DNA of 51,041 bases. Source: Anaerolineaceae bacterium UBA5838 (lineage in GTDB: Bacteria; Chloroflexota; Anaerolineae; Anaerolineales; Anaerolineaceae). The notes beneath the pieces are model-generated. The model saw only the letters and a program-made list of their open reading frames with translations. It was not told the origin of the DNA and made no database searches. Shown here in pieces: positions 2,572 through 49,836 of this stretch. The DNA lies in contig DJGU01000092.1 in assembly GCA_002432795.1 (NCBI GenBank), positions 203-51,243 on the forward strand. Direction: 5' to 3'. Made by a program: the position numbers and the translations under genes. Each line of letters starts with the position of its first letter. Within the stretch, counting starts at the first letter, position 1.

Positions 2572-3510
2572 CTAAAGCCCGCACGACATATTTTCGAGAC
2601 AATGCGTCGCTGAAATTGCCGCAGCTGCTCCCATGCCAGCTGATGTAACAACCTGTCGGAAATGCGGGTCGGCAATTTCACCTGCTGCAAAAACACTCTT
2701 TTTACTGGTTTCCAGATGCTCATCAATTTTCAGCGTTCCGCCTGGTTCCATCTCGAGTTGCCCTTCAAAAAAAGTAGTATTCGGGCTGTGACCTATGAAA
2801 ATGAACAGTCCTTCAGTGGGCATCAAGCTCTTTTCGCCTGTTTTGACATTTTCGATCAAGAGCTCTTCCACACCCTCACTACCCCTGATTTCATTGACAA
2901 CCGAATCAAAAAGAAAACTGATCTTTGGGTTGGTTCTGGCCCGGTTCTCCAGGATGGCTCCGGCTCGCAAGGTGTCGCGCCTGTGAATAATTGTCACGCT
3001 GTGAGCAAACCGTGTCAGGAAGAGGGCTTCTTCGAGGGCGCTGTCGCCGCCGCCCACAACATGGATGTCTTTGTCCTTGTAGAACCAGCCATCGCAGGTC
3101 CCGCAGTACGAAACGCCTCTCCCGATAAATTCCTCTTCTCCAGGAACGTTAAGCCTTTTGTTGTTTGCCCCCATGGCAATGATCAACGCGTCAGCGGTAT
3201 AGTCCCCGCCATACACGCTGACTGTGTAGGGATGCCTGGAAAGATCTACAGCCTGAACTTCGTCAACTAAAAACTCCGCTCCAAAAGCTTTCGCCTGCTC
3301 CTCAAAGAGTTGACCAAGCTCCATACCCCCAACCCCTTTTGGGAAACCAGGATAATTTTCTATCGTATGAGTCAACGAAGATTGCCCATAAAGGACCATG
3401 CCAGTAATCACCAGGGGCTTCAATTCTGCCCGGGCTGCATAGATCGCAGCGGATAGCCCTGCAGGGCCAGCCCCCAAGATTATCAATTGTCTGTGTTCAA
3501 TCAAACCCAT
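2572..3510 (-). CDS. trxB: Thioredoxin-disulfide reductase
   Basis: FAD motif GAGPAGLSAAIYAARA, redox-active CGTC in SYCGTCDGWFY, NADPH motif VVGGGDSALEEALFL. Length is 312 aa. A strong GGAGAGG Shine-Dalgarno lies upstream of the ATG. Confidence 0.9.
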   Translation of the reverse strand: MGLIEHRQLIILGAGPAGLSAAIYAARAELKPLVITGMVLYGQSSLTHTIENYPGFPKGVGGMELGQLFEEQAKAFGAEFLVDEVQAVDLSRHPYTVSVYGGDYTADALIIAMGANNKRLNVPGEEEFIGRGVSYCGTCDGWFYKDKDIHVVGGGDSALEEALFLTRFAHSVTIIHRRDTLRAGAILENRARTNPKISFLFDSVVNEIRGSEGVEELLIENVKTGEKSLMPTEGLFIFIGHSPNTTFFEGQLEMEPGGTLKIDEHLETSKKSVFAAGEIADPHFRQVVTSAGMGAAAAISATHCLENMSCGL

Positions 3511-9938: not shown

Positions 9939-10847
9939 TTATTTTTCTAACTTCACTTCATGCCCACCAAATTTGTTTCGCATGGCTGCCAGCAACTTAT
10001 CGGCAAAAGCTTCTTCTTCTCGTGACCTTATGCGTCGCTGTAGGGACAAGGTAATGATTGGAGCAGCGACATCTAGATCAATTGCCTCAAAAACCGTCCA
10101 GCGACCCTCCCCAGAGTCTGGAACCCAAGCTTTAATTCCTGACAGGTTTTCATCCTCAGCCAAAGCGCTTGCCGTCAGATCAAGTAGCCAGGACCGCACC
10201 ACGCTGCCATCCTGCCAAATTTTGGCAATTTGAGAAAGGCTCAGGTCAAAGTCCTTCTTCGCCCGAAGGATCTCAAACCCTTCGGCATAAGCTTGCATCA
10301 AACCATATTCAATCCCGTTGTGGATCATTTTAACGAAGTGCCCGGATCCAGCTGGACCCACGTGTCCCCATCCTTTGTCAGGGGCAGGCGCAAGTGTTTC
10401 AAAAATCGCTCGGTATTTTTCGACAAATTCTGTTTCCCCGCCAATCATCAAGCTGTATCCTTCAGTTAAACCCCAAACTCCACCACTTGTTCCAACATCG
10501 ATGAAATGAATTCCTCGATCACTCAGTTCCTTCCCACGGCGAATGGAATCTTTGTAATTCGAATTTCCGCCGTCGATCACCGTGTCACCCGGTTCAAGCA
10601 AGTCTGCTGCTTTTTTGATTGTGTCATCTGTGATTTTTCCTGATGGCACCATGACCCATACCAACCTTGGCGCTTCTAATTCTTCAATGAGGGCATTGAG
10701 CGTGCGAGCACCTTCAGCGCCCGATCTTTCAACCGCCTGAATTGAAGCTTCATCTATATCAAACGCCACAACCCTGTGCCCACCTTTCAACAGGCGCGAA
10801 GCCATATTTGCGCCCATCTTCCCTAAACCAATCATTCCAATATCCAT
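9939..10847 (-). CDS. gnd: 6-phosphogluconate dehydrogenase, decarboxylating (short YqeC/Gnd-like form)
   Basis: N-terminal IGLGKMGANMASRL Rossmann motif, GGNSNYKDS, GSGHFVKMIHNGIEYG signature. 302 aa. Confidence 0.85.
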   Translation of the reverse strand: MDIGMIGLGKMGANMASRLLKGGHRVVAFDIDEASIQAVERSGAEGARTLNALIEELEAPRLVWVMVPSGKITDDTIKKAADLLEPGDTVIDGGNSNYKDSIRRGKELSDRGIHFIDVGTSGGVWGLTEGYSLMIGGETEFVEKYRAIFETLAPAPDKGWGHVGPAGSGHFVKMIHNGIEYGLMQAYAEGFEILRAKKDFDLSLSQIAKIWQDGSVVRSWLLDLTASALAEDENLSGIKAWVPDSGEGRWTVFEAIDLDVAAPIITLSLQRRIRSREEEAFADKLLAAMRNKFGGHEVKLEK

Positions 10848-14184: not shown

Positions 14185-14934
14185 TTAACTTCTTTCCCTG
14201 ATCAACTTAGCCGCGCTTGAATCAACATGCCAGATAATATTTCCTTGAGCCGGCTGGATCCTTTGAACTGGAATATTCTCCGGGTCAAGATGGTCTGATA
14301 ATGCGATTTGGAGCATTCTTGCTTTGGCTTCACCCACAATCAGAAAGATTACATTTCTGGAAGCGTTGAAAACCATCGGTGTAAGCGTGACCCGCGCTGC
14401 CGGGCGGTCTTGACACGATGCATTAACCTGTATGACCGGGCTCACATCCTCACCTGGGCTAATTCTGCCTGGAAACAGCGAGGCTGTATGACCATCTTCA
14501 CCCATCCCCATCAGCGCGATATCAAAAACCGGCCAGGGGGTTTTGCCCTTGGCAAAATTCGAAAGGACATGAATATAGTCTGACACTGCATCCTGAGGGC
14601 TAAGTTCCCCTTTAATCCTGTGGATATTTTCAGCACTTGCAGGAATCTTACTCAGAAAATTGTCAAATGCTTGTCTATAATTGCTGTCCGAATACTCTGG
14701 GGGAACACAGCGCTCATCTCCCCAGAAAAAATGGACCTCACTCCAGGGAACAGAATAATGGCTTTGGTTTTGAGCAAGTGCCTCATACACACCAATCGGA
14801 GAAGAACCGCCAGAAAGCCCGATATTTGCAGTTCCGCGCAGATGTACAGCCTGTGTGAGGATCTCAGCAATGCTTTCAGAAGCAGCATTGTTAAGGTCTT
14901 CAACACTATTATGAATCCATACCGTTTTTTCCAT
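14185..14934 (-). CDS. pgl: 6-phosphogluconolactonase
   Basis: GLSGGSSP, FFWGDERCVP, GMGEDGHTASLFPG. Confidence 0.85.
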   Translation of the reverse strand: MEKTVWIHNSVEDLNNAASESIAEILTQAVHLRGTANIGLSGGSSPIGVYEALAQNQSHYSVPWSEVHFFWGDERCVPPEYSDSNYRQAFDNFLSKIPASAENIHRIKGELSPQDAVSDYIHVLSNFAKGKTPWPVFDIALMGMGEDGHTASLFPGRISPGEDVSPVIQVNASCQDRPAARVTLTPMVFNASRNVIFLIVGEAKARMLQIALSDHLDPENIPVQRIQPAQGNIIWHVDSSAAKLIRERS

Positions 14935-15082: not shown

Positions 15083-15251
15083 AGTTACTCCTATAAGATA
15101 AAATACTTGTATGACCTGCACGTATCCCGACGTGGTAAGGTTGGGTTTAATTACTTCGTTGAGTCTGTAAGAAATCTTCATCCGGAAGCATCCAACAAAA
15201 AATCCAGACGCAAGCGGAGAACTATAACCAAAGCGTATGAGGAGAAAAGTA

Positions 15252-16709
15252 ATGTCTGAATCAACCACAATTATCATTTTTGGAGTCTCTGGTGATCTTG
15301 CCCAGCGCAAATTAATTCCCGGATTATTTAACTTGTTTCAGAAGAAAAAGCTTGAAAGTAATTTTAGAATTGTCGGGCTGGCTGGACGCCCTTGGCAAGA
15401 TGAAGATCTTCGCGCCACCGCAAGGAAATCGATAGACTCCTTTGCCGGGTTCAAGGTAGAAAATGATAAATGGAATGAATTTGCTGGAAAACTATTTTAT
15501 ATTTCCGGAGATTTCCGCAATGAACAATCCTATAATACGCTGTCAGAGAAGCTGGAGTTTTTGGAAAAAGGAGCTGCAAACAGATTGTATTACCTCGCGA
15601 CTCCGCCAGATTTCTTTATCGATATCATTGAAAACCTTGGGAAAACGAATCAGGTTGATGAGTTGGAAGGCTGGAGAAGGGTAGTTATCGAAAAACCTTT
15701 CGGGACTGATTATGAATCAGCAAAGAAACTCAACTCCGAGATTCACAAGGTTCTTAACGAGGAACAGATCTACCGCATTGACCATTACTTGGGAAAAGAA
15801 ACTGTTCAAAATATCTTGGTAGCTCGATTTGCAAACACAATTTTTGAACCGATTTGGAACCGCAACTATATTGACAATGTTCAAATAACTGTCGCTGAAA
15901 AAGTTGGTTTGGAACGCCGCGCAAAATACTACGATAAAGTAGGTGTTGTTCGGGATATGTTCCAAAATCATTTACTCCAGTTGCTTTCTTTAATTGCTAT
16001 GGAACCCACAGCTTCTTACAAGGCTAATGACCTGCGTGATGAAAAAGTTAAAGTTATCAAATCCATCAGGAGAATTCCTTTTGAAAAAGTAGAAAGCGAA
16101 GCGGTTCGGGGTCAATACCGCGGCTATAGCCAAGAAGAAGGCGTATCGGAAGGAACACAAACGCCCACCTTTGCAGCGATTCGTTTCTATATCGACAATT
16201 GGCGCTGGCAGGGAGTTCCATTTTACCTTCGCTCCGGGAAAAGGATGCCTGAAAAAGTAAGTGAAATTGTCATCCAGTTCAAGAAACCACCCCATCTCAT
16301 GTTTCCGTTGCCTGAAGAGTATGAATTCTCAGCCAATCGTCTTACCCTTTGCCTGCAACCTGATGAAGGAATTCACCTGAAGTTTGAGACGAAAGTTCCG
16401 GACACGATTGCTGAAACCCGGTCGGTGGATCTTGAGTATCATTATCGGGATGTGTTTGGCAAAGATGCCATTCCTGAAGCCTACGAAAGGTTATTGTTGG
16501 ATGCGATTACCGGAGATGCATCATTATTTACCCGTGGGGATCGTAGTGAACTGGCCTGGGAATTAATTGATCCGATCCTTCAAGCATGGGAAAGCCCGAA
16601 CGCTCCACCTTTGCCCATATATGAACAGGGAAGCTGGGGTCCCATTGAGGCAGATATGCTGCTAGCAGGGGATTCTCTCAAATGGCAGCGTGGATGTGGA
16701 AATCATTGA
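15252..16709 (+). CDS. zwf: Glucose-6-phosphate 1-dehydrogenase
   Basis: IIFGVSGDLAQRKL, RIDHYLGKE, RDMFQNHLLQLL. The start is set at the ATG at 15252, preceded by GAGGAG. The track start at 15237 is the alternative. Confidence 0.9.
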   Translation: MSESTTIIIFGVSGDLAQRKLIPGLFNLFQKKKLESNFRIVGLAGRPWQDEDLRATARKSIDSFAGFKVENDKWNEFAGKLFYISGDFRNEQSYNTLSEKLEFLEKGAANRLYYLATPPDFFIDIIENLGKTNQVDELEGWRRVVIEKPFGTDYESAKKLNSEIHKVLNEEQIYRIDHYLGKETVQNILVARFANTIFEPIWNRNYIDNVQITVAEKVGLERRAKYYDKVGVVRDMFQNHLLQLLSLIAMEPTASYKANDLRDEKVKVIKSIRRIPFEKVESEAVRGQYRGYSQEEGVSEGTQTPTFAAIRFYIDNWRWQGVPFYLRSGKRMPEKVSEIVIQFKKPPHLMFPLPEEYEFSANRLTLCLQPDEGIHLKFETKVPDTIAETRSVDLEYHYRDVFGKDAIPEAYERLLLDAITGDASLFTRGDRSELAWELIDPILQAWESPNAPPLPIYEQGSWGPIEADMLLAGDSLKWQRGCGNH

Positions 16710-16723
16710 TAAAGGAAATCGAT

Positions 16724-17431
16724 ATGCCTGATCACACGGAAATAGATTTATATAACTACGACGAATTCGTTCCTGAAAAATTTGAGCGTTGGATGAGATT
16801 TGACGATAGCCCACCGGTGGGAAAACTGGTGCCGGATTTTCCCTTATGGAATTTGGATCGATCCACAACCAGTTTGAAAACTGAAATCACTAAACATGCC
16901 TACACCATAGTCGAGTTTGGTAGTTTTACCTGACCATACTGCGGGCTGGCGTGCCCAGCCATGAATAAAGTTGCTGTGGATTTCGAAAACAGTGACATTG
17001 GATCGGTTTTTATCTATACCCATGAAGCCCATCCAGGCGAAAACTATCCCCATTTAACGAGTATGGATCAAAAGTTCCGTCACGCCGAGGCACTTCGTGA
17101 TGTTTATGGTGTTACACGGCGGATACTTCTGGACGCTTTGAATGGTGCGTGCCACAGGCACTTTGGTTCCATGCCAAACATGACCTGGATATTCAACCGC
17201 TCCGGGATACCTGTTTATAAATCCGATTGGTCAGATTCCCACAGCGTGAGGAACGCCCTGGAGTATTATCTGGAAATCCCCAATCGCAGAAAAGCCGGCG
17301 AGCGATTGGCTCCATTCCATGTGGAGCGCCTTGATTATCGCAACCAGGAAAGGGAGTTATTTTACGAGTCTCTGGAAAGGAATGGACCAAAGGCCGTCGC
17401 GGAGTTTCAAAAAGCTTTTCCATCAGGTTGA
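16724..17431 (+). CDS. Deiodinase-like thioredoxin-fold selenoprotein; UGA at 16931-16933 read as selenocysteine
   Basis: Track ORFs 16682-16933 and 16961-17431 are in the same frame, separated by TGA plus 9 sense codons. The joined sequence TIVEFGSFT-U-PYC...VFIYTHEAHPGENYP fits the FGSxT-[U/C]-P ... Y.xEAHP pattern of the iodothyronine-deiodinase-like family. A hairpin follows the UGA. The start is placed at ATG 16724, after AAGGAAA. Confidence 0.75.
16944..16960 (+). promoter_or_regulatory. Candidate bacterial SECIS hairpin for the UGA at 16931
   Basis: GGCTGG-CGTGC-CCAGCC is a 6-bp GC-rich stem with a 5-nt loop containing GU. It starts after a 10-nt spacer from the UGA. A possible 3-bp lower stem pairs CAT (16935-16937) with ATG (16961-16963). 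Confidence 0.55.
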
Positions 17432-17488
17432 TAGAGTTCTATTGATAAACTTGGGATTTGGAGTACCTAATACCTGTATAATTGAAGA

Positions 17489-17833
17489 ATGGTGGTACGC
17501 AGCGATTCCGGTTGGATAAACCTGATTAATTGCGAGCGTACATTGAGCAATCCCGTTTTTGCTGAGCTGTATGAGCTAATAGTTTCACTGTTGCCTGTTG
17601 GAGTAAAAGACAGCCGCTTTGAGTTTTGTGAGCAGGTAGAAGAACAAATAAAGGGAGTTGCAAACTTTACACTTGAATATGTTAGCGAGAATTTGCAAAA
17701 ATATGATGGGGGTACACCATTTTTAAAATGGGTATTGAATATTGCGGTACGGCAGTTGTTATACGAATTACGAGTTGAAAAATGGAAAATTGACTCAAAG
17801 GAGGAAGGCTTCCCACAAGTACCTGAAGAATGA
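17489..17833 (+). CDS. ECF-type sigma-70 factor, sigma2 (region 2) portion; ends at an in-frame TGA in the inter-domain linker
   Basis: TPFLKWVLNIAVRQLLYELRVEKW aligns with FTTWVYTIAVRFALTEIRRAKW of the intact paralogue at 30252-30887. Confidence 0.6.
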   Translation: MVVRSDSGWINLINCERTLSNPVFAELYELIVSLLPVGVKDSRFEFCEQVEEQIKGVANFTLEYVSENLQKYDGGTPFLKWVLNIAVRQLLYELRVEKWKIDSKEEGFPQVPEE

Positions 17834-17836
17834 CGC

Positions 17837-18082
17837 ATGATACTTTCTGAAAATGAGTTTTTGCAATTTACCCACAACTTGTTCAAACAAGAGCTTTCAG
17901 AGAGTCAACGAATCGCAATTCGCTCGATGGTGATGTTCAGAATGCCAAAAGAAGAGGTAATGCGATTATTACTGATGGAGCGTTGTGATTATTTTAAAAT
18001 GATCCATGATGCGCGCCTGAGAATTAAGCGGCGTTTACAAAATGATAGCGTCGTTGTTACAGAACAGCTGACAGACCTGTAG
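17837..18082 (+). CDS. ECF-type sigma-70 factor, sigma4 (region 4 HTH) portion; same frame as 17489-17833, ATG 3 nt after the TGA
   Basis: LSESQRIAIRSMVMFRMPKEEVMRLLLMERCDYFKMIHDARLRIKRRL aligns with LTEKQRTALMAVAIHGIPLAEVARSMNTERNALYKLLHDARLKLKRHM of the paralogue. Confidence 0.55.
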   Translation: MILSENEFLQFTHNLFKQELSESQRIAIRSMVMFRMPKEEVMRLLLMERCDYFKMIHDARLRIKRRLQNDSVVVTEQLTDL

Positions 18083-18123
18083 ATCATCATCATAGTAGAA
18101 TACGCTTCAGTTTGGATTGAGAA

Positions 18124-19089
18124 ATGGACAAAAATCAAAAGGTGGAAAACCTCGAAGAATTTAAAGCCTCCTTTTCCTATGGAAAGAGGTCAGACTTAAA
18201 TTTTAAATTCCTCAAGGATTTGTCATCAGAAGAAGTTGGCTCTTTTTTTTCAGACTTATTCGGAAAAATCGGGGAAACACTAAATGATGGAAATATCAAC
18301 CGCTTAGTGAATCAAGTTATTGAGTGGCAAACAAGTGTCTATTCAAAACCAGGAAGGTATCTTTATGCTGATGTCCCATTTTCTCCATTACAGAAACCCC
18401 TTTCCCAGTCTCGATTGGCATTATTAACTTCCAGCGGTCACTTTGTGGCAGGGGATGACCCAAATCCTCTTGGCGTGGAGAACATGACTCAGACCGAAGC
18501 TGAGTTGAGAATTTCTGAGTTTTTAAGGGCGGTTCCACAGCTTTCGGAAGTCCCAATTGACACACCAGAAGATTCTTTGCGGGTCAGACACGGCGGCTAT
18601 GATATTAGTGGAGCCGTGAAAGATCCCAATGTCAATTTTCCAATAACGCGTTTACGAGAGATGCAGTCTAATGGCATGATCGGAGATCTATTCCCGATTG
18701 CGTTTTCCTTTGTTGGCGCTTGCTCGCAGTTGCAGTTGACAAAGAGATCAGGTCCAGCATGGGTGAAAAAATTCAAGTCCCTGGGTATCGAGGGAATGAT
18801 CCTGGTTCCAGTCTGACCAGTCTGTCATGTGTCCGTGGGACACATTGCGCGTATGCTTGAAGAAAGCGGGATATCCACTGTGGTAGTTTGTTCAGAAATA
18901 TTTCGTGAAAAAATGCTGGCCATGAACTTGCCTCGCATCCTTTTTACCCATACCCCTTTAGGTCGACCTTTAGGTGCTCCAGGGAATAAAGCCACCCAAA
19001 CAGATATTTTAGTATCAGCACTTGAATTGCTTGAATCCGCTCAAAGGGGAGGTAGCGTGGTAGACAGCCTTGCTTCGTATTTCCGGTAA
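18124..19089 (+). CDS. Glycine/sarcosine/betaine/D-proline reductase selenoprotein B (GrdB) family protein; UGA at 18814-18816 read as selenocysteine
   Basis: Track ORFs 18124-18816 and 18829-19089 are in the same frame, separated by TGA plus 4 sense codons. The joined sequence is GIEGMILVPV-U-PVCHVSVGHIARMLEESGISTVVV...PRILFTHTPLGRPLGAPGN. The upstream RVRHGGYD..DPNVNFP fits my recollection of the GRDB family. A hairpin follows the UGA. Confidence 0.75.
18827..18845 (+). promoter_or_regulatory. Candidate bacterial SECIS hairpin for the UGA at 18814
   Basis: ATGTGTCC-GTG-GGACACAT gives an 8-bp stem with a 3-nt loop, or a 7-bp stem with loop CGUGG. It starts after a 10-nt spacer from the UGA, the same spacing as at 16931. 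Confidence 0.55.
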
Positions 19090-19447
19090 GTAGATTAATT
19101 TCGTAGGAATATCGTCAGCTTTCACAGTTAACAATAGACAGTAAAGTAAATAAACCGGGGGTTGACCTTTTTGGCAGCAGTTGTTCCAGGTATTGTATCC
19201 ACGCTAGTTTTCAGGGTGGTTTTGCTTTTAGCCCCCCAGATGGAAATGCTGAAAATAGATATGGGATCCCTTCCAGCAAGTAAGGACAAGAAGGAAGGCA
19301 AGCCATTATTCGGATGGCTGGAACATCTCATGATTGGTATTGTCTTTGCAGACAACCTTTCATTGCAGTGGGGATTTTATGGGGAAAAGGTAAGAAAACA
19401 ACCCGCTTTGCAGTCAATTGACTAATACGAAAACATAAGGAGATGTT

Positions 19448-19963
19448 ATGAACACCTTGCGACATTTTAGAAAAGAAAAAGATGAGTTTTTTGCAGACCA
19501 TCCACAAAGTCCGCTAACGCATGAACAGAAACACAGCTTTGAAGGGTTAAACTACTTTCCTGAAAACCCCGGCTTGAAACTGACGGTTAGGGTTGAGGAA
19601 TTTGCAGAAAAAGAACAGATCACCATGCAAACTTCCACCGGGGATATATTGACCTACCAAAGATATGGCCGTTTCCAATTCAATATAGAAGGGCAGCCAG
19701 CAGAACTCACGATCTATTCAAGTGAAGATGAATACTTTTTACCCTTCGCAGATGCTCTGGCTGGCGAAGAAACCTACGGGGCTGGACGCTATCTGGAGCC
19801 TCATTCGCTCGGAAACGGAATGTTCTTGATTGATTTCAATTATGCGTACAACCCCTACTGTGCCTACAATGCGCGTTGGTCCTGCCCCATTACTCCAGCT
19901 GAAAACCGTTTGAGGGTCCCGATTCGAGCTGGCGAGAAAATATTCGAGACTCACGATTTGTAG
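19448..19963 (+). CDS. DUF1684-family protein
   Basis: GAGRYLE and DFNYAYNPYCAYN..WSCP..P.ENRL are characteristic. AAGGAG Shine-Dalgarno upstream. Confidence 0.75.
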   Translation: MNTLRHFRKEKDEFFADHPQSPLTHEQKHSFEGLNYFPENPGLKLTVRVEEFAEKEQITMQTSTGDILTYQRYGRFQFNIEGQPAELTIYSSEDEYFLPFADALAGEETYGAGRYLEPHSLGNGMFLIDFNYAYNPYCAYNARWSCPITPAENRLRVPIRAGEKIFETHDL

Positions 19964-19988
19964 AATTAGCATATCGTCAATTCACTTT

Positions 19989-20633
19989 TTGATAACGGTA
20001 AATTACGCGATGTTTGATCAAATTCTGCGAATTCCAAAAGAAAAGGTCCTTGAACCTCTGGCTCAAGGACCTTTGAAAAACACCAATCCGACAACAATGA
20101 CTGTAATCGCCTGTGGGGTTAGTGTAGCTGCTGGTGTAACGGCGTGGCAAGGTCAAACCGGTCTGACGCTTGGTCTTTGGTTCCTGAACAGGTTTCTGGA
20201 TGGATTAGATGGAACAATCGCCAGGGTTAATCATAAGCAGAGCGATTTTGGCGGGTATCTGGATATTGTTCTGGATATGGTCGCATATGTTTCCATTCCC
20301 CTGGGAATGGCTCTTGGAATGAATGAAAAGAATGTATTTTTAGCTCTGGCGTTATTATTTGCCGCTTTTTACATCAATAGCGCAGCCTGGATGATGTTGG
20401 CAGCCAATCTTGAAAAACGCGGTCAAGGAGCAACAACAAAAAAGGAATTCACGACAGTGACCATGCCCAGAGCGATTATCGAAGGCGGAGAGACCATTCT
20501 TTTTTACTCATTATTCATCTTATTTCCAGAGCGGTTGACAATTTTGTTTGGCTTATTGGCAGTCCTGGTCTTAGCATCAGCAACTCTCCAAGTGAGCTGG
20601 GCTCACCGTAACATACGAGAAAAAATAGGATAA
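19989..20633 (+). CDS. CDP-alcohol phosphatidyltransferase family membrane protein
   Basis: DGLDGTIARVNHKQSDFGGYLDIVLDMV satisfies D-G-x2-A-R-x8-G-x3-D-x3-D. Several TM segments are present. The track start is TTG 19989; ATG 20010 is the alternative. Confidence 0.75.
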   Translation: MITVNYAMFDQILRIPKEKVLEPLAQGPLKNTNPTTMTVIACGVSVAAGVTAWQGQTGLTLGLWFLNRFLDGLDGTIARVNHKQSDFGGYLDIVLDMVAYVSIPLGMALGMNEKNVFLALALLFAAFYINSAAWMMLAANLEKRGQGATTKKEFTTVTMPRAIIEGGETILFYSLFILFPERLTILFGLLAVLVLASATLQVSWAHRNIREKIG

Positions 20634-20639
20634 TGCCAC

Positions 20640-21347
20640 GTGAAAAAAGAAAACAAATTACCAGAAAATCAATCCTGGATGCACAGGAGTGGGAGGAAAA
20701 TCGCAGCTCTTGTTTTTTGGATGGCGGTTTTAGTTGGCTATCAGGTCTATGTTTATAAGAATGGGCTCACTGCAGTATCAGTAATGAATCAATTGCTGGG
20801 ATTAATGACCGATCGTTTTTGGGGTCCACTTATTTATATTTTGCTATATTCAATCAGACCCCTTATTCTCTTCCCTTCAACCTTTCTTACATTGGCAGGC
20901 GGTTTTCTTTTTGGACCAGTTTTGGGAGTCCTTTATACTATTGTGGCCAGTAACACTTCTGCCACAATTGCATTCCTTGTGGGGAAGTATTTTGGACAGG
21001 GAATTATTAAAGAGGGTTCCTCAAGCAATTTCATCCAAAGATATGCTGAGCGGATGCGCGAAAATAGCTTTGCTACTGTTATCGTGATGAGATTTATCTT
21101 CTTACCATATGATCTGGTGAACTATCTTGCCGGTTTTCTGCGGATCCGTTGGAGACCCTTTATGTTAGCTACTCTTCTTGGATCAATTCCAGGAACTATT
21201 GCCTTTATTTTGGCAGGAGCATCATTTGAACGATTTGAGGGCGGTGTGCCAAAACTCAATCCTGCGACATTAGCAGCTTCGATCATCATCTTTATCGGTA
21301 GTTTACTTCTGTCGCGATTCTTTAAAAAACGTGAGGAAATTGCATAA
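20640..21347 (+). CDS. TVP38/TMEM64 (DedA/SNARE-associated) family membrane protein
   Basis: Polytopic protein with an LILFPSTFLTLAGGFLFG core typical of the family. GTG start. The stop overlaps the next start (TAATG). Confidence 0.7.
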   Translation: MKKENKLPENQSWMHRSGRKIAALVFWMAVLVGYQVYVYKNGLTAVSVMNQLLGLMTDRFWGPLIYILLYSIRPLILFPSTFLTLAGGFLFGPVLGVLYTIVASNTSATIAFLVGKYFGQGIIKEGSSSNFIQRYAERMRENSFATVIVMRFIFLPYDLVNYLAGFLRIRWRPFMLATLLGSIPGTIAFILAGASFERFEGGVPKLNPATLAASIIIFIGSLLLSRFFKKREEIA

Positions 21348-22756
21348 TGAAAAATGAAAATTTCGAGAACATTGTTATTGGTGCTGGTTCAGGCGGGTTG
21401 ACAGTTGCGATTGGATTGGCAATGCAAGGTAAAAAGGTTGCACTGATTGAATCAAATCATGTGGGAGGGGACTGCACCAACGTTGGTTGCATTCCGTCAA
21501 AAACACTTATTCATCTTGCGGCAAATTACCAACCTGGAGATGATATTGGAAAGATACTGGAAAAAGTTACACAAAAAAGAGACGATCTTCGGATCAAAGA
21601 AACAGATGAAGTTGGAAAGATAGACAATCTTCATTTGATATTCGGTCAAGCCCGATTCACCGGTCCTAAAATGATCCGGATCAGCAGTGACGATAAACCA
21701 GCGAGAGAGATAACGGGGAAGAACGTCATCATTGCGACAGGCGCACGCCCACGATTGTTGGACATTCCTGGACTTCCAGTTGATAGAATGCTGACAAATG
21801 AGTCTTTGTTTGACATCACCACCATTCCCGATCACCTTGCCATAATTGGAGCGGGTATCATAGCGATCGAATTGGCGTTTGCTTTTCGCAAGTTAGGCAC
21901 AAAAGTGAGCTTAATCGCCCTGGATCCACGAGCCTTACCCACCTATAGCCCGGATGTCTCGGCAGCAATACAGCCAGAGCTTGATAAGTTAGGTATTGAA
22001 ACACACTACAATGCTACAGGGGACTCTTTTGATGAGAGCACACATACTCTCACAATACGTTCTGCTCAAAATACGTATCCATTAAATGATGTAGATAAAG
22101 TGCTTATAGCAATTGGACGGATTCGAAATATTGACAACTTAGGGCTCGACTCAGCGGGGGTTTTGTGGGGGAAAACCGGGATTATAGTCGACGGCTTTGG
22201 ACGGACGAACGTAAAAGGCGTATACGCAGTAGGTGATGTCACCCCTACATCTGCCTTCACACACTCAGCGAACGCACAAGGACGAAGAGTTGTCCAAAAA
22301 ATTGCTTTTCCGTGGCTGCCATTAAAAAAATCTGAACCATTGGTTCCCACCTCCGTTTTTAGTGATCCAGAAATTGCAACGGTTGGCCTTTCGCAGTCGC
22401 AAATTAACAAGAAATATCACAGCAATCTCATCAAAAGTTTGCGCGTTGATCTAAAATCGCTCGACCGGGGGTACACGGATGATGTTGAAAATGGTTTTAT
22501 CCATGTAGATGTAATTCGTCTGACTGGCAGAATTCTTGGGGCAACCATCGTCGGTCCACGGGCTTCAGAAATGATTTCATTTTTCACCCTGGCCATAAGT
22601 CAAAAGATCAGCCTTTACAAATTGTTCCCCCTGGTCTACCCTTACCCAACCTATTCGAGTGGCATATTGGATATTGCGGATAATTATCTCAAGGAAACAT
22701 TGCAAAACTTGCCGCTAGAACTGTTGAATTTCTTACGCTATCGACTAATGAAGTAA
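21347..22756 (+). CDS. Class I pyridine nucleotide-disulfide oxidoreductase (mercuric-reductase / dihydrolipoamide-dehydrogenase-like, substrate unknown)
   Basis: IGAGSGGLTVAIGLA FAD motif, redox-active GGDCTNVGCIPSK, a second Rossmann IIGAGIIAIELA, and a C-terminal dimerisation domain. Confidence 0.85.
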   Translation: MKNENFENIVIGAGSGGLTVAIGLAMQGKKVALIESNHVGGDCTNVGCIPSKTLIHLAANYQPGDDIGKILEKVTQKRDDLRIKETDEVGKIDNLHLIFGQARFTGPKMIRISSDDKPAREITGKNVIIATGARPRLLDIPGLPVDRMLTNESLFDITTIPDHLAIIGAGIIAIELAFAFRKLGTKVSLIALDPRALPTYSPDVSAAIQPELDKLGIETHYNATGDSFDESTHTLTIRSAQNTYPLNDVDKVLIAIGRIRNIDNLGLDSAGVLWGKTGIIVDGFGRTNVKGVYAVGDVTPTSAFTHSANAQGRRVVQKIAFPWLPLKKSEPLVPTSVFSDPEIATVGLSQSQINKKYHSNLIKSLRVDLKSLDRGYTDDVENGFIHVDVIRLTGRILGATIVGPRASEMISFFTLAISQKISLYKLFPLVYPYPTYSSGILDIADNYLKETLQNLPLELLNFLRYRLMK

Positions 22757-22811
22757 AGTAAGAAAATTCGACGTTCTCTCGTCTATAAGTTAACTAATAT
22801 AATAAAGGAAT

Positions 22812-24080
22812 ATGATTATGAGAAAATTAATAGCACTGCTAATTCTTTCTGTTTTTGCATTGTCTGCCTGTACATCGATCGTGCAAACCCAAATAGTCTC
22901 TTCAGAATCGTTTGATATTAATAATTGGGACAGTATTGTTGCTGCCGCCAATGGTCAAACAGTGAACTGGTATATTTGGGGTGGGTCTGAATCAATCAAT
23001 AGCTTCGTCGATAATTTTTATGGAGAAGCGCTTAAGGACCGCTACAATATCACTTTAAATCGCGTTCCAGTCGCAGACACAGTGGATGCAGTCAATCAAG
23101 TCTTGAGCGAAAAGCAAGCGGGAAAGGATCCTGGCGCTGTTGACCTGATCTGGATCAATGGAGAGAATTTTGCCACATTAAAGCAGGCTGATTTGCTCTA
23201 CAGGGATTGGGCAAACAAACTCCCCAACAGTCAATATGTCAACTGGGATAATCCCGCCATAAACCGGGACTTTGGGACTCCGGTAGATTTTCAAGAAAGC
23301 CCATGGTCTTCTGCGCAGTTCCAATTTATCTATGATTCTGCCAGAATGCAGCCGGAGGAATTACCCCGTTCGTATGCTCAACTAAAAAACTGGGCGATCA
23401 AGAATCCGGGACGGTTTACTTATATTGCTCCTGGTCCGGGCGCGTTCCAGGGAACCCGTTTCGTGAAGGGTGCACTATTTGAGATCAGTGGTGGCGCAGA
23501 CCAATGGGCAACCTTCGACCAAACCACCTGGGATAAATGGTCCCCTGAATTGTGGGCATACTTCAATGAAATTAAACCTTATCTATGGCGCCAGGGCGAG
23601 ACTTATCCAAAAGATGAGAATGAGTTACACAGCCTGTTTGCCAACAAAGAAGTCGATTTTAGTATCACCCAGGCAATTGTTGGAGCAGGCGCGTTGGTAG
23701 AACAGGGATTAGTTCCTCAAACATCAAAGGCATTTGTTTTCGAAGACTACATGATTGGTGACTTCAATTATGTGGGAATTCCATCTAACGCTCCCAATAA
23801 AGCGGCAGCTCTTGTGCTGGCTAATTTGATCCTTGAACCAGAATTCCAGGCTGCACAGATCTTACCTGAAAATGGGTTTGGTTTGGGCTTTGGCATTGAT
23901 ATTAATCAGGTTACAGATACTGCGTCCACGACCCTTTTAGCAGACGCGTCCAAAAAACTGGGCGACGCTGCAACATCACCTTCTGATCTGGCGAAATCAT
24001 TGGTTGGTGATTCAGCCGCACAATATCAAAGCCTGATAGAAGAAGGTTGGCGCCAATATGTACTTCTCAATTCGAAATAA
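22812..24080 (+). CDS. ABC transporter substrate-binding lipoprotein (YnjB-like family, substrate unknown)
   Basis: Lipobox LSVFALSAC. VNWYIWGGSESIN...DLIWINGENF resembles YnjB-type binding proteins, recalled from memory. Confidence 0.7.
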   Translation: MIMRKLIALLILSVFALSACTSIVQTQIVSSESFDINNWDSIVAAANGQTVNWYIWGGSESINSFVDNFYGEALKDRYNITLNRVPVADTVDAVNQVLSEKQAGKDPGAVDLIWINGENFATLKQADLLYRDWANKLPNSQYVNWDNPAINRDFGTPVDFQESPWSSAQFQFIYDSARMQPEELPRSYAQLKNWAIKNPGRFTYIAPGPGAFQGTRFVKGALFEISGGADQWATFDQTTWDKWSPELWAYFNEIKPYLWRQGETYPKDENELHSLFANKEVDFSITQAIVGAGALVEQGLVPQTSKAFVFEDYMIGDFNYVGIPSNAPNKAAALVLANLILEPEFQAAQILPENGFGLGFGIDINQVTDTASTTLLADASKKLGDAATSPSDLAKSLVGDSAAQYQSLIEEGWRQYVLLNSK

Positions 24081-24082
24081 GG

Positions 24083-24961
24083 ATGAATAAGCAGTCGAAT
24101 TTTTCTCCTCCATGGCTTAGTCTGGCCCCAGCAATCGCAATAATTGGATTATTGTTTGGGGTCAGCGTGCTTTATGGTTTGGCGCAAAGCTTCGGAATTC
24201 TCACGGGAACTGAACAAGAAGCACTAAACCTGGACGCGTATCGCAATGTATTTGCCGGTCAAGGACCTGCAGGACGGGAGTTCTGGTCTTCCTTCGGCTT
24301 CTCTCTTTGGATTGCCGGGATATCTACTTTTGTGTCTGCAATAGGCGGGTTCTTCGTTGCCGTTTGGCTCAATGGTCGTCGAGGCAGGGGGAGCCGCGGT
24401 GATACTCTCGCATTAAACTGGAATTTAGCATTCCCTCATTTGGTCTGGGCAATCGGTTTGTTGTTGTTTTTTTCACAAAGCGGTTTGCTCGCGCGCATAT
24501 TAGCATCAATGGGTATTATCCAAACGCCGAGCCAATTCCCTGTTCTGGTTCGTGATCGACTTGGAATAGGTATTATTGTCGATTACATATCAAAGGAAAT
24601 CCCATTTCTGGCGTTAATTGTCTTAGCCGTATTGCGTTCTCAGGCAGAAAACTTTGAGGTTGTAGCTGAGAATTTAGGGGCATCGCGTTGGCAGCGCTTG
24701 AGGTATGTCACCATCCCACAGGTCTTGCCATCCTTATTGTCTGGATCGCTGCTGGTATTTGCTTTTGTTTTTAGTGCCTATGAGGTTCCAGCACTTTTAG
24801 GAGTTAGATATCCAAGAATGCTGCCAGTTCTGGCATTGGAGTTTTTCACAAATCCTGATCTGAACAGCCGCGCAGAAGGAATGGTGATCAGCCTGGCTAT
24901 TACCGTGGTGGTGATGATTATCGCTGCGATCAGTATCAAATTTGAAAAGAAGATTGGCTGA
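24083..24961 (+). CDS. ABC transporter permease
   Basis: Six hydrophobic segments and an EAA-like loop (VAENLGASRWQRLRYVTIP). The start is set at ATG 24083, just after the SBP stop; the track ORF begins at 24047 inside the upstream gene. Confidence 0.8.
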   Translation: MNKQSNFSPPWLSLAPAIAIIGLLFGVSVLYGLAQSFGILTGTEQEALNLDAYRNVFAGQGPAGREFWSSFGFSLWIAGISTFVSAIGGFFVAVWLNGRRGRGSRGDTLALNWNLAFPHLVWAIGLLLFFSQSGLLARILASMGIIQTPSQFPVLVRDRLGIGIIVDYISKEIPFLALIVLAVLRSQAENFEVVAENLGASRWQRLRYVTIPQVLPSLLSGSLLVFAFVFSAYEVPALLGVRYPRMLPVLALEFFTNPDLNSRAEGMVISLAITVVVMIIAAISIKFEKKIG

Positions 24962-24964
24962 CGG

Positions 24965-25759
24965 ATGAAGAAGATTCTCAATGCTGCAATCAGGTTTTTT
25001 TTATATCTGGTGTTGATTGCGCCTCTTCTTCTTTTTGGAGTGTATGCCTTCTCTGAACGTTGGTTTTTTCCCGATGTTCTCCCATCAACTTGGTCAACCG
25101 CACCTTTTTTACGTTTATTTTCTGACCCCAAGACTGTCGGAGGGCTGCTCACAAGCATTGGTATTGCGCTGGTGGTAAGTTTGTTCTCCTTGATTGTTGC
25201 TTTTCCAGCTGCACGAACATTGGGATTACGGAGATTTCCCGGTCGTCAATTTGCCTGGTTATTATTCTTCTTGCCCACAGTGGTCCCTCCTTTAGCTGTC
25301 GGTATGGGAATGAATATTTTATTTCTCAGGCTTGATCTGGCGGGATCTTTTGTTGGAGTTATCCTTTCTCATCTTGTGCCCACATTGCCGTATACAATAT
25401 TTACACTCTCCGGTTTGTTTGCTAATTACGATGAAAATTATGAATACCAAGCCATAGTGCTCGGCGCAAGCAAAAGACGGACGTTCTTCAATGTGACATT
25501 ACGTTTGGTCTTTCCAGGATTGATCGTTGCTGGATTGTTTGCATTCTTAATCTCATGGAGTCAGTACCTATTAACATTATTGATAGGCGGCGGGAAGGTT
25601 CTCACGCTTCCTATGCTTCTTTTCTCAGCGGTATCAGGTGGGAATCCGTCAACCATCGCCGCGTTATCTTTGTTGTTTATCGCTCCTCCTGTCTTGGTTA
25701 TCGCATTAACAGCGCGCCAACTCAACCAACACGGAAACGCGATTAAGGAGCAGTACTAA
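24965..25759 (+). CDS. ABC transporter permease
   Basis: Polytopic, with an EAA-like loop (QAIVLGASKRRTFFNVTLRLV). Tightly packed with its neighbours. Confidence 0.8.
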   Translation: MKKILNAAIRFFLYLVLIAPLLLFGVYAFSERWFFPDVLPSTWSTAPFLRLFSDPKTVGGLLTSIGIALVVSLFSLIVAFPAARTLGLRRFPGRQFAWLLFFLPTVVPPLAVGMGMNILFLRLDLAGSFVGVILSHLVPTLPYTIFTLSGLFANYDENYEYQAIVLGASKRRTFFNVTLRLVFPGLIVAGLFAFLISWSQYLLTLLIGGGKVLTLPMLLFSAVSGGNPSTIAALSLLFIAPPVLVIALTARQLNQHGNAIKEQY

Positions 25760-26799
25760 TGGCAAAAGTTGAATTGCTGAATTTATCTAAAAATTATCCT
25801 GGACGAAAAACGCCGGTACTAGATCAATTTTCCCTGACCGTTGATTCTGGAGAGTTGGTCTCCTTATTAGGTCCCTCAGGAAGCGGTAAATCTACTCTGC
25901 TCAGGTTGATCACAGGGATAGAATACCCGGATTCGGGGGATATTCTCTTTGATGGAAAGAGCATACTATCTATTCCTCCAAATAAGCGTGGAGCTGTTCT
26001 CATGTTCCAGAAAGCCTATTTGTTTCCTTTCCTGAGTGTTGAAGAAAACATCGGATTTGGACTGAAAGTACAAGGGGCAACAAAACAAACTATTCAAATA
26101 GAGGTAGCAAAAATTCTTGACTTGATCGGATTACCCGGAATTGAGAGGCGAAAACCCGCCCATCTTTCAGGTGGTGAGCAACAACGGGTTTCCCTTGCAA
26201 GAGCCTTAATTGTGCGTCCGACCTTGTTATTACTGGATGAACCTTTAAGCAGTCTGGATACTGCCGTGCGTCAGAATTTACAGGAGGCAATCCGGCGAAT
26301 TCAACACGAATTGGGAATTACAGCCATTTTGGTAACTCACGATCTTGGTGAAGCCATGGGAATGTCAGACCGCATGGCATTATTACTTGAGGGTAAAGTG
26401 GCCGCCATCGATGAACCGATGAAGTTGTTTCAAAAACCGCCCAGCAGCCAGGTGGCAAAATTTGTAGGGATAGACACTTTCCTCAAGGGGCGTGTAAACC
26501 ATGGAACCCTTGAAACCCAACATGGCAACCTGACGGTTAGGACAAACGGATTTGTTTCTGATTCGGCAACGTTTGCAATTAGACCTGAGCATATTGAGGT
26601 CGGCAGCGAACTGGCTGAGAACATACTCACTGGAGTGGTAAAGGATTGCATGTATCGGGGTGAATATGTGGAATACCAAATCCAGATCGATACAATGGTT
26701 GTCAGAGCCCGGGTTGCGATGCCTGCAGCAATGATTCCACATGGTGAGGTGATCAAGGTGGCGTTTCCCGCTGAACATCTATTTCCATTAACCGCTTAA
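25759..26799 (+). CDS. ABC transporter ATP-binding protein with a C-terminal TOBE-like domain (PotA/CysA type)
   Basis: Walker A GPSGSGKST, signature LSGGEQQRVSLARAL, Walker B LLLLDEPLSSLD. Confidence 0.9.
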   Translation: MAKVELLNLSKNYPGRKTPVLDQFSLTVDSGELVSLLGPSGSGKSTLLRLITGIEYPDSGDILFDGKSILSIPPNKRGAVLMFQKAYLFPFLSVEENIGFGLKVQGATKQTIQIEVAKILDLIGLPGIERRKPAHLSGGEQQRVSLARALIVRPTLLLLDEPLSSLDTAVRQNLQEAIRRIQHELGITAILVTHDLGEAMGMSDRMALLLEGKVAAIDEPMKLFQKPPSSQVAKFVGIDTFLKGRVNHGTLETQHGNLTVRTNGFVSDSATFAIRPEHIEVGSELAENILTGVVKDCMYRGEYVEYQIQIDTMVVRARVAMPAAMIPHGEVIKVAFPAEHLFPLTA

Positions 26800-26932: not shown

Positions 26933-28318
26933 TCAGGATTTGGAGCGAATGTAACGGGTGACTCCCTTTTTGACAATCTCCGAAAAAGTTGGATAAATGA
27001 AAATCGTTTCAGCTAAAGCCTGCATACTGAGCTCCTGCATAATTGCCAAAGTGAAAAACTGAATCCATTCACCTGCATGCAAACCAATTGCATCAGCTCC
27101 AACAATGACATCGTTTTCATCCATGATTATCTTCAAGAATCCTTCTGTCTCGCTTTCAGTGATGAATCGGTCGACCGAATTGGTATCAACACGAGAAATA
27201 TTTACTTTTCCAAATTTCTTGATGGCTTGAGCTTCAGATAAGCCAACATGCCCAACTTCAGGCTCCATGAAAATTGCCCATGGGACTATGGAGAGATCAT
27301 TCTCGCGCTTATTTACCTGAAGAATATTATCGATACAGATATCTGCCTGAAAGGAAGCCATATGCGTAAATTTCGCTGGCGAGGTGACATCGCCACATGC
27401 ATAGATATTAGCCGCTGTAGTTTGCAAATATTCATTGGTTTTTATTCCATAAGGCAGGTACTCGACTCCAGCCTTTTCCAGTTGCAATCCATTGATGTTT
27501 GGCACCCGCCCTAGTGCGACAAAGATTTGTTCTGCAAAAAGGTCTTTCAGTTCCCCATCTTGATCAAGAACAAGTTTGATTTGACCATCAGAATTTTGAA
27601 TACAATTGGTCACCTCTGAGTTCGTAATAATCCGAACCCCATCTTCTTCAAGCGCTTTCGTGACCAAGGCGACAATTTCGGGATCCAGGGCATTTAATAT
27701 GGCCGGATTACGCTCAACAATCGTCACGTCTGTGCCAAACCTGGCCAGTGATTGTCCCAATTCAACTGAGATTACCCCACCACCAAGGAACACAACTGAC
27801 TTTGGCTGTTCACGCAATTCCCAAAAGTTTTCATTGTCCAGGAATTTGAGCATTTCACTGCCCTCATGCGGTGCCATGCGAGGGGATGAGCCAGTTGCAA
27901 TGACAAAATAATCGGATTCAAGAACGGAATCCCCAATCGATATGTGGTTTTGATCGATAAACTTTGCCCCGGAAGGATCAATAAACACATCAATCCCCAT
28001 GTCCTGGAAATGGGCAGGCTGTTCGTTGCGATAGACGCCTTGCACCACATCATCCACATGTGTCATGACTTTAGCAAAGTCAAACTCTGACCCCAGTTGT
28101 ACCATTGGGAGACCGTGGCTCTCAAATTTCTTTCTTGATTGGAATAGCCGCGCGCTGCTGATGAGCGTTTTGCTTGGAACACAGCCCGCGTGAGTACATT
28201 CCCCACCTATCTTATTCTTTTCGACCAATGCCACCCGGGCTCCCCGGCGGTGAGCAGTTAATGCTGCCACCAACCCACCTGAACCGGCACCAATTACTGT
28301 AATATCGTATTTTTCCAT
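26933..28318 (-). CDS. Class I pyridine nucleotide-disulfide oxidoreductase (second mercuric-reductase-like paralogue)
   Basis: IGAGSGGLVAALTA, redox-active GGECTHAGCVPSK, a second Rossmann FLGGGVISVELG, and a C-terminal YPTFSE in place of the usual HPTxSE. Confidence 0.85.
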   Translation of the reverse strand: MEKYDITVIGAGSGGLVAALTAHRRGARVALVEKNKIGGECTHAGCVPSKTLISSARLFQSRKKFESHGLPMVQLGSEFDFAKVMTHVDDVVQGVYRNEQPAHFQDMGIDVFIDPSGAKFIDQNHISIGDSVLESDYFVIATGSSPRMAPHEGSEMLKFLDNENFWELREQPKSVVFLGGGVISVELGQSLARFGTDVTIVERNPAILNALDPEIVALVTKALEEDGVRIITNSEVTNCIQNSDGQIKLVLDQDGELKDLFAEQIFVALGRVPNINGLQLEKAGVEYLPYGIKTNEYLQTTAANIYACGDVTSPAKFTHMASFQADICIDNILQVNKRENDLSIVPWAIFMEPEVGHVGLSEAQAIKKFGKVNISRVDTNSVDRFITESETEGFLKIIMDENDVIVGADAIGLHAGEWIQFFTLAIMQELSMQALAETIFIYPTFSEIVKKGVTRYIRSKS

Positions 28319-49832: not shown

Positions 49833-49836
49833 GTAT

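Follow-up and report, generated by a model that had tools for sequence, protein, structure and literature searches.

The closest described relatives of the gene reported here are the B subunits of the Stickland reductases, namely PrdB of Clostridium sticklandii and Clostridioides difficile, and GrdB, GrdF, and GrdH. To hold its substrate, PrdB depends on a pyruvoyl subunit, PrdA, and the genes of the prd and grd systems usually lie together in clusters. Here, we analyzed positions 18124-19089 (+) of a 51,041-nucleotide (nt) stretch of contig DJGU01000092.1 from Anaerolineaceae bacterium UBA5838 (the whole 51-kb stretch is referred to below as the window), where an in-frame UGA separates two open reading frames (ORFs). 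We conclude that this region is very probably one gene, in which the UGA is read as selenocysteine (Sec) by means of a hairpin of the selenocysteine insertion sequence (SECIS) type, and that the product is most likely a stand-alone, PrdB-like U-P-V-C selenol/thiol oxidoreductase rather than a Stickland B subunit.

Proteins of this kind have been catalogued since 2005 under the name "PrdB, pfam07355, UxxC", and the window gene is therefore a new, unannotated member of a known group. In the Sargasso Sea survey of that year, "Proline reductase PrdB" (UXXC) was the third most abundant selenoprotein family, with 42 Sec forms and 1 cysteine (Cys) form, and "PrdB UXXC" was classed as a thiol-dependent redox selenoprotein (PMC1088965, Table 3). 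The Global Ocean Sampling survey of 2008 listed "Proline reductase PrdB, pfam07355, UxxC" and counted 235 selenoproteins against 110 Cys homologs (PMC2398784), and five "proline reductase" selenoproteins were reported in 2007 for the Olavius delta-1 symbiont (PMC1976440). Going by the family and motif descriptions in these sources, the window gene appears to belong to the same subfamily as the survey proteins, with which it shares the Pfam family, the UxxC motif, a greater frequency of Sec than of Cys, and hosts that are environmental and nonclostridial. In addition, a locus from the Olavius delta-1 assembly (L023) encodes a protein 54% identical to that of the window and carries the TGA. All three papers treat these proteins as proline reductase subunits. 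In the portions of the 2005-2008 surveys available to us, the missed PrdB and GrdB definitions, the absent PrdA, the N-terminal extension, and the neighborhood are not discussed; later work may exist.

One gene interrupted by an in-frame UGA

The original prediction, which was made from the DNA alone, joined two ORFs that share a frame at an offset of 705 nt and are separated by a TGA and four sense codons, and we confirmed these coordinates. The upstream ORF (18124-18816) starts with ATG, encodes 230 amino acids (aa), and ends in the TGA at 18814-18816. Past this codon, the frame continues through CCA GTC TGT CAT (P-V-C-H), takes in the GTG at 18829, and closes with a TAA at 19087-19089. When joined, the two parts give a product of 321 residues, which reads ...SLGIEGMILVPV-U-PVCHVSVGHIARMLEESGISTVVV... 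around Sec, with the segment N-terminal of Sec reading ...GIEGMILVPV-U-PVCHVSVGHIARMLEESGISTVVV.... The features of the gene are as follows.

18124..19089, +: predicted selenoprotein gene, complete at 321 codons followed by a TAA stop and carrying a single in-frame UGA
18124..18369, +: N-terminal helical extension (residues 1-82), subfamily-specific and outside the Pfam and NCBIfam models
18370..18807, +: match to Pfam GRDB PF07355 (residues 83-228, model 213-345 of 347)
18541..19062, +: alignment to NCBIfam PrdB TIGR04483 (residues 140-313), across the UGA, E = 1.3e-31, 109.9 bits against a cutoff of 300
18814..18816, +: predicted UGA Sec codon (residue U231), with TGA or TGC at the homologous position
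18814..18825, +: putative U-P-V-C redox motif (Sec231, Cys234), with Cys at the first and second positions in 42/54 and 44/55 superfamily sequences, respectively
18824..18848, +: bacterial SECIS-type hairpin within the coding sequence, supported by fold, covariation, and synonymous-codon constraint

A search of a 5.8-billion-protein collection revealed 1393 relatives. Among the 120 best, ~114 are ~230 aa long and end in "...LVPV", and five are full length (~328 aa). The full-length 328-aa Cys homologs align with the joined protein from end to end and place a Cys exactly opposite the TGA (LVPV-C-PVCHVS(V/I)GHVAR). Thus, the window gene and ~95% of its relatives have been deposited as 230-aa truncations or mislabeled "D-proline reductase PrdB", and as a result of these truncations databases lack the dyad along with the final 90 residues.

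We sampled loci by running tblastn on one genome per Genome Taxonomy Database (GTDB) species, which gave 80 loci with matches across the TGA position; these matches cover query residues 1-320. The codon at the Sec position was TGA in 77 distinct homologous genes from at least eight phyla and TGC (Cys) in 3 of the GTDB species hits (77:3), or in 6 genes after three more Cys-type contigs were added. Past the TGA, 83-110 codons are open in 75/75 of the TGA genes examined, and the recurrence of the same TGA followed by conserved open codons in 75-77 homologous genes shows that the long shared frame is more than chance. Across the 77 homologs, mean identity to the window protein was 52.6% for the part preceding the TGA and 49.8% for the part that follows. 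On the downstream side, substitutions at codon positions 1, 2, and 3 were 0.47, 0.26, and 0.70, respectively, a pattern that indicates translated sequence under purifying selection.

TGA is also the ordinary stop of 10 of the 37 confident window genes, which end at full domain length and include G6PD, pyruvate kinase, and POR, so the codon has not been reassigned. Decay is likewise ruled out, since the same "nonsense" codon is found in 77 species and Cys in the rest. Taken together, the read-through evidence leaves no room for a pseudogene, for a pair of distinct genes, or for a variant genetic code and, along with the hairpin described below, it bears out the original prediction that the TGA is a Sec codon. 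Three database entries (P0157, P0204, and P0225) have Trp at the Sec position (…W-PVCH…); these are most likely genetic code 4/25 calls on Sec-encoding contigs.

A SECIS-type hairpin downstream of the UGA

In bacteria, SelB-GTP-Sec-tRNASec binds the SECIS element and brings Sec to the ribosome. Given this established role, SelB would be expected to bind the hairpin that we found 3' of the UGA, where the original prediction had proposed that one be sought. The hairpin begins 10 nt after the U of the UGA and has 10 pairs (18824-25 with 18847-48, and 18827-34 with 18838-45). More specifically, a G-C and a U-G pair are followed by a 1x1 internal mismatch, eight Watson-Crick pairs (AUGUGUCC/GGACACAU), and the apical loop GUG (18835-18837). 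In its position and its GUG loop, it agrees with the published description of the bacterial SECIS as a stem-loop right after the UGA whose apical loop is small and includes a G (PMC1088965). The whole structure lies inside the codons of the conserved peptide C-H-V-S-V-G-H.

Across 75 distinct Sec-type sequences, standard pairs occupy 94.8% of the 750 pair cells, and shifting the 3' partner by 1-3 columns lowers pairing to 20-51%. Two pairs covary (C-G/U-A, 46/14; G-C/A-U, 59/12). Double-change cells number 26 as against 6.5 expected, and the covariation score was reached in 0 of 500 shuffles. All of the Val-to-Met (GUG-to-AUG) changes (12/12) are paired with a silent CAC-to-CAU change in the opposing His codon. 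Codon choice is constrained as well: in the stem, Val is encoded by GUG in 62/62 cases and Gly by GGR in 77/77, compared with 39% and 41%, respectively, over the rest of these genes, whereas for the Val two codons past the UGA all four Val codons are used. A minority UCG-GUC variant (13 sequences from several phyla) has a GGUC-containing loop instead of the GUG triloop; nevertheless, the loop G-U is kept in every Sec-type sequence, this variant included.

Of the six Cys-type genes, three have GUC or GUA for the stem Val (codon 5), and none has GUG as the loop codon, which is AUU in two. On the fixed structure, the mean energy of the Cys-type sequences is -9.6 kcal/mol versus -11.8 kcal/mol for the Sec type. 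These comparisons indicate that the hairpin is under selection as a recoding signal and that the constraint relaxes in the Cys forms. The window gene is a textbook-quality case of a misannotated bacterial selenoprotein and has a clean SECIS covariation signature. For reannotation, U-P-V-C-H-V-S-V-G-H encoded as UGA CCN GUN UGY CAY GUG UCC GUG GGR CAY offers a simple and specific marker.

Relationship to PrdB, GrdB, and UGSC proteins

The original prediction placed the joined protein in the GrdB family. Searches with profile hidden Markov models upheld the GRDB superfamily, with the correction that PrdB is nearer than GrdB (110 versus 48 bits). The Pfam GRDB model (PF07355) matches with 46.2 bits against a gathering score of 22 (E = 5e-12), and the match, which reaches model position 345 of 347, stops three residues short of U231. 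The NCBIfam PrdB, GrdB, GrdF, and GrdH models align across Sec, so that both halves of the gene are spanned, and all of them score under their own cutoffs. The NCBIfam scores are as follows.

PrdB (TIGR04483): 109.9 bits, cutoff 300
GrdF: 57.0 bits, cutoff 800
GrdH: 51.7 bits, cutoff 775
Selenoprotein B subfamily (TIGR01918): 49.8 bits, cutoff 65.45
GrdB: 47.5 bits, cutoff 602

Ten relatives, both near and distant, also fall under the curated cutoffs, with 73-150 bits for the PrdB model. Because PrdB is the nearest model, yet every curated cutoff is missed, we label the protein "PrdB-like", neither PrdB nor GrdB.

An exhaustive profile search revealed 2171 cluster representatives (50% identity) at E <= 1e-3. 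The first ~80 residues of the window protein are covered by the closest ~60 representatives only; the distant representatives (240-420 aa) start later and carry a C-P-x-C-H motif. In the alignment of 75 relatives from which the dyad counts above were taken, D168, P174, and R272 (numbering of the Cys homolog P0002) are invariant, and E247, G250, and T253 are nearly so. The ARxLExxGIxTV segment, which had been singled out beforehand as a family mark, proved common to the superfamily, and the window protein has both U231-P-V-C234 at the U/C-x-x-C position and the ...ARxxExxGxxTV segment. Judged by sequence, the closest proteins form a separate GRDB subfamily that is nearest to PrdB and is set apart by its N-terminal helical extension and its near-exclusive use of Sec. 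This family is widespread (at least eight phyla), nearly always has Sec over Cys, and is without a solved structure.

The window protein resembles PrdB in its best-scoring curated model, in an alignment over model positions 56-228 of 238 that passes through Sec, in a core of comparable size, and in the U-x-x-C dyad (PMC1088965, Table 3). Apart from its score (110 versus 300 bits), it differs in the extra ~80-residue N-terminal helical extension, in the absence of prdA or any other prd gene near the PrdB-like gene in 80+ loci, and in its hosts, which belong for the most part to Chloroflexota, Acidimicrobiia, and Desulfobacterota and not to the Clostridia that ferment proline. GrdB, GrdF, and GrdH (TIGR01917, NF040794, NF040795, and TIGR01918) belong to the same Pfam family, and their models align across Sec over positions ~264-421 of 431. 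However, the window protein matches the C-terminal half of GrdB only, scores 48-57 bits against cutoffs of 602-800 and under the subfamily cutoff of 65.45 too, and lacks a grdA/grdE/grdC/grdD context.

There is also a weak likeness to the UGSC family (PF24696/NF041046), in which residues 231-265 align with model positions 69-103 (E = 0.039); one relative of the window protein, P0134, matches at E = 9e-4. The two families share the U-x-x-C motif followed by a ...G(I/V)PTV... strand, but the scores are far under the cutoffs, and UGSC proteins are ~150 aa long and without the GRDB N-terminal region. On the Olavius delta-1 contig, a UGSC selenoprotein gene with an in-frame TGA (…LAGIGD-U-GSCSSG…; L023, 3957-4562, -) adjoins the PrdB-like gene in convergent orientation.

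In two further proteins, P0183 with 514 aa and P0249 with 805 aa, an AMP-binding (adenylation) domain is fused to a C-terminal GRDB-like domain with C-P-V-C-H-Q. In this fusion branch, the GRDB-like domain may act on an activated carboxylate. We set these fusions aside as evidence for the window subfamily, as they are distant Cys relatives only.

Predicted structure

Sequence and profile searches of the PDB revealed chance matches only (hexokinase and ClpP). The structural description below is that of an AlphaFold2 model of P0002, which is 56% identical to the window protein, built from a 75-row alignment. The predicted local distance difference test (pLDDT) score of this model is 95.3, and its predicted template modeling (pTM) score is 0.92; a 6-row alignment had given a low-quality model (pLDDT of 65) whose fold search was meaningless. 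In the P0002 model, four N-terminal helices precede a core of alternating strands and helices, and the dyad is flanked by strand 225-229 on one side and by the N-terminus of helix 233-248 on the other. The passage from a strand to a helix N-terminus is the usual setting of redox-active CxxC centers. A Foldseek search with the P0002 model found no PDB neighbor (best E = 0.026, template modeling score <= 0.30).

Proposed function

Comparison of the sequences shows one gene with a Sec codon, a selected hairpin, GRDB membership, a U/C-x-x-C dyad, and no Stickland partners nearby. By analogy, a selenol/thiol oxidoreductase role is the most likely one for the window protein, given the conservation of the dyad in the superfamily, its location at a helix N-terminus in the model, the survey classification, and the thiol-redox neighbors. 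In the mechanism that we propose, the SECIS-type hairpin at 18824-18848 would cause the UGA at 18814-18816 to be read as Sec, and the U231 selenolate would then attack the substrate. Cys234 would resolve the adduct to give a selenenylsulfide, which would be re-reduced with NAD(P)H-derived electrons, either via thioredoxin and thioredoxin reductase (2572-3507) or via a neighboring flavoprotein reductase. The selenolate chemistry is suggested by the "PrdB UXXC" survey class and by analogy with PrdB, for which the basis is reportedly the work of Kabisch et al. in 1999 (J Biol Chem 274:8445).

Several observations weigh against our reading of the gene. The thermodynamic z of the hairpin region is 0.13, unremarkable for the local composition; for this reason, and because of its location in a conserved peptide, the hairpin has to be tested at silent sites. 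None of selA, selB, selC, and selD lies within the window, so that we can only infer the Sec machinery of the organism, and neither Rfam at gathering thresholds nor a tRNA scan gave a match anywhere in the window. No PrdA equivalent was seen near the window gene or its relatives, which weakens the analogy with PrdB, and partner genes may be located in another part of the genome. Finally, the flavoprotein reductases found next to this family are at least as distant from one another (27-36% identity) as the window's own paralog, and they occur in ~15% of loci; given this paralog-level identity and sparse occurrence, a dedicated reductase partner is not established.

Genomic neighborhood and alternative explanations

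Neighbors were compared by all-against-all ORF clustering within 6 kb on either side in the 80 loci, with flanks of up to 10 kb. No neighbor cluster was present in more than 12 of the 80 loci, and no PrdA-type partner recurred. Both the window and ten Pfam-annotated contexts were free of PF09338 (PrdA/GrdE) and PF04723 (GrdA), in agreement with the earlier remark that grdA, grdE, and prdA partners are not visible, and six-frame translations of 1.3 Mb (window plus loci) gave no match to the GrdA Sec motif, which we take to be C-x-V-U-T-A-A-G. The genes that do recur include class-I flavoprotein disulfide reductases, which were found in 12 loci from at least five phyla and are directly adjacent on the same strand in five of them (L045, L048, L052, L075, and L077). 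Considered as a dedicated orthologous partner, the adjacent reductase was rejected on account of the identities given above; one of these reductases is MerA-like with a C-terminal CC. Further recurrent neighbors are UbiE-type methyltransferases, AhpC-TSA_2, AhpC/TSA, AhpD-like proteins, thioredoxin, and DsbA. DUF1684, encoded directly downstream of the window gene, was rejected as a conserved neighbor, as it occurs in two loci only.

In the window, the region 15237-26799 is entirely co-directional, and the surroundings of the selenoprotein genes are rich in redox functions, with pentose-phosphate, thioredoxin, and flavoprotein reductase genes. The neighboring features are as follows.

2572-3507, -: thioredoxin reductase, 371 bits against a cutoff of 343
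7782-9815, +: DUF255 thioredoxin-domain protein
9939-10847 (-), 14185-14934 (-), and 15237-16709 (+): oxidative pentose-phosphate genes (6PGDH-like, 6-phosphogluconolactonase, and G6PD), for NADPH supply
21347-22756 (+) and 26933-28318 (-): two paralogous class-I flavoprotein disulfide reductases, the first within the array below
19989..26799, +: ynj-like array, its association with the selenoprotein gene only hinted at, composed of the next six entries
19989-20633, +: YnjF-like CDP-alcohol phosphatidyltransferase, 37% identical to Escherichia coli YnjF, E = 1e-16
20640-21347, +: YdjZ-like VTT/DedA protein, 31% identical to E. coli YdjZ, E = 4e-16
21347-22756, +: flavoprotein disulfide reductase
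22812-24080, +: YnjB-like substrate-binding protein (SBP), 38% identical to E. coli YnjB, E = 5e-55; NCBIfam PRK11622, 398 bits
24047-25759, +: permeases
25759-26799, +: ATPase

The window array mirrors the ydjXYZ-ynjABCD-ynjF cluster of E. coli (L097; NC_000913.3, 1834000-1846000), although no AhpD-like (YnjA) or rhodanese (YnjE) genes were seen in the window.

Could the selenoprotein be a working part of such a ydjZ/ynjBCD/ynjF-like module, reducing or cleaving an imported compound or a lipid head-group intermediate? We consider this unlikely. It is true that the gene stands in a co-directional run with homologs of YnjB, YnjF, and YdjZ and that a ynj-like set lies within the examined flanks of the GrdB-like gene in other Chloroflexota (L014, L017, L024, L025, and L093), in Acidimicrobiia (L075 and L077), and in Bacillota (L083); in L075 and L077, moreover, the gene directly 5' on the same strand encodes a flavoprotein reductase, and the one 3' encodes a CMD protein of the AhpD-like (YnjA-like) type. 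Nevertheless, these amount to only 8 of the 88 other loci, most relatives have unrelated neighbors, and the E. coli ynj cluster is itself uncharacterized. In addition, the YnjB-like SBPs of L075 (3224-4501) and L077 (3712-4989) are 63% identical to that of the window, compared with 50-51% for the selenoproteins. This difference suggests that the module has passed laterally from one phylum to another, and transfer as an island may explain the shared neighborhood. The ynj-like surroundings are thus a weak lead and not a demonstrated linkage. A broader proposal, that the N-terminally extended, PrdA-less PrdB-like proteins make up a distinct class of stand-alone selenoenzymes coupled to a flavoprotein disulfide reductase and a ydjZ/ynjBCD/ynjF-type module, is speculative and rather doubtful. 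If true, it would provide a first functional handle both on a family that ranks among the most abundant orphan selenoproteins of environmental metagenomes and on the E. coli ynj cluster.

It is quite improbable, in our estimation, that the gene encodes a true Stickland reductase B subunit (for D-proline, glycine, sarcosine, or betaine) whose prdA, or grdE with grdA/C/D, lies elsewhere in the genome. Such a subunit would fit with PrdB as the top curated model (E = 1.3e-31) and with the practice of Joint Genome Institute (JGI) pipelines, which call the relatives "D-proline reductase PrdB", and the neighborhoods covered only 6-10 kb on either side of each gene. Against it, the scores for PrdB (110 versus 300 bits), GrdB (48 versus 602), and the selenoprotein B subfamily (50 versus 65) all fall short, as they do in the ten relatives, and the N-terminal extension is not part of the PrdB model. 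Although prd and grd genes normally cluster, a PrdA-, GrdE-, or GrdA-type neighbor was present in none of 80+ loci from at least eight phyla. The hosts, among them Anaerolineae, Acidimicrobiia, and Gemmatimonadales, are to our knowledge not classical amino acid fermenters. Placement of the family outside the Stickland reductases, as in the stand-alone oxidoreductase that we favor, sharpens the old question of its function and does not overturn current knowledge.

That the TGA is a real stop (leaving a 230-aa protein, with the remainder either started at GTG 18829 or untranslated), a pseudogene lesion, or a reassigned codon (code 4/25) is hardly tenable: public gene calls do end there, a few database entries (P0157 and P0225) have Trp, and a nearby sigma-like ORF has a TGA/TGG polymorphism, but 77 species share the codon and the others have Cys, the frame past it evolves as coding sequence at a rate equal to that of the upstream part, synonymous sites keep the hairpin only where the codon is TGA, TGA ends other window genes at full Pfam length, and the catalytic dyad would fall on two polypeptides.

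Other in-frame UGA codons and selenium-related genes

A second candidate for Sec decoding lies ~1.2 kb upstream of the PrdB-like gene.

16682..17431, +: second UGA gene, redoxin/deiodinase-like, FGSFT-U-PYC, TGA at 16931-16933 with a downstream hairpin

As proposed earlier, it too has the U-P-x-C motif. Its Pfam matches (Redoxin, T4_deiodinase, and AhpC-TSA) are all slightly under their gathering scores. The hairpin, at ~16944-16960, reads GGGCUGG-CGUGC-CCAGCC with a G-U in its loop, and both the TGA and the hairpin are kept, with compensatory stem changes, in L011, L025, L088, and L018. The gene therefore offers independent, if indirect, sequence support for Sec decoding by the lineage. Conservation of the two genes as neighbors, which the original prediction had suggested examining, is limited to a few Anaerolineae-type loci. 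Similarly, linkage with the G6PD, sigma-like, and deiodinase-like genes was rejected as functional, since it occurs in Chloroflexota only and reflects lineage synteny.

At the window edge is an FdhD/NarQ-family gene (49705-50604, +). FdhD/NarQ is an accessory factor of formate dehydrogenase, itself often a selenoprotein; fdhA, if present, would fall outside the window.

Between the two UGA genes, an ORF that clusters with extracytoplasmic function (ECF) sigma-like proteins (17489-18082, +) has an in-frame TGA at 17831-17833. The near-identical strain L001 has TGG (Trp) there, together with several further amino acid differences in this ORF, whereas the adjacent selenoprotein gene is 100% identical in nucleotide sequence between the assemblies. 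The gene calls of L002 and L003 split the ORF likewise. This TGA looks like a real nonsense/read-through polymorphism and not a Sec codon. Finally, upstream of a Cys-type homolog (L090, 1-365, +), two abutting ORFs (78 aa for the first and 42 aa for the second, which matches AhpC-TSA weakly) may be a UGA-split peroxiredoxin-like gene.

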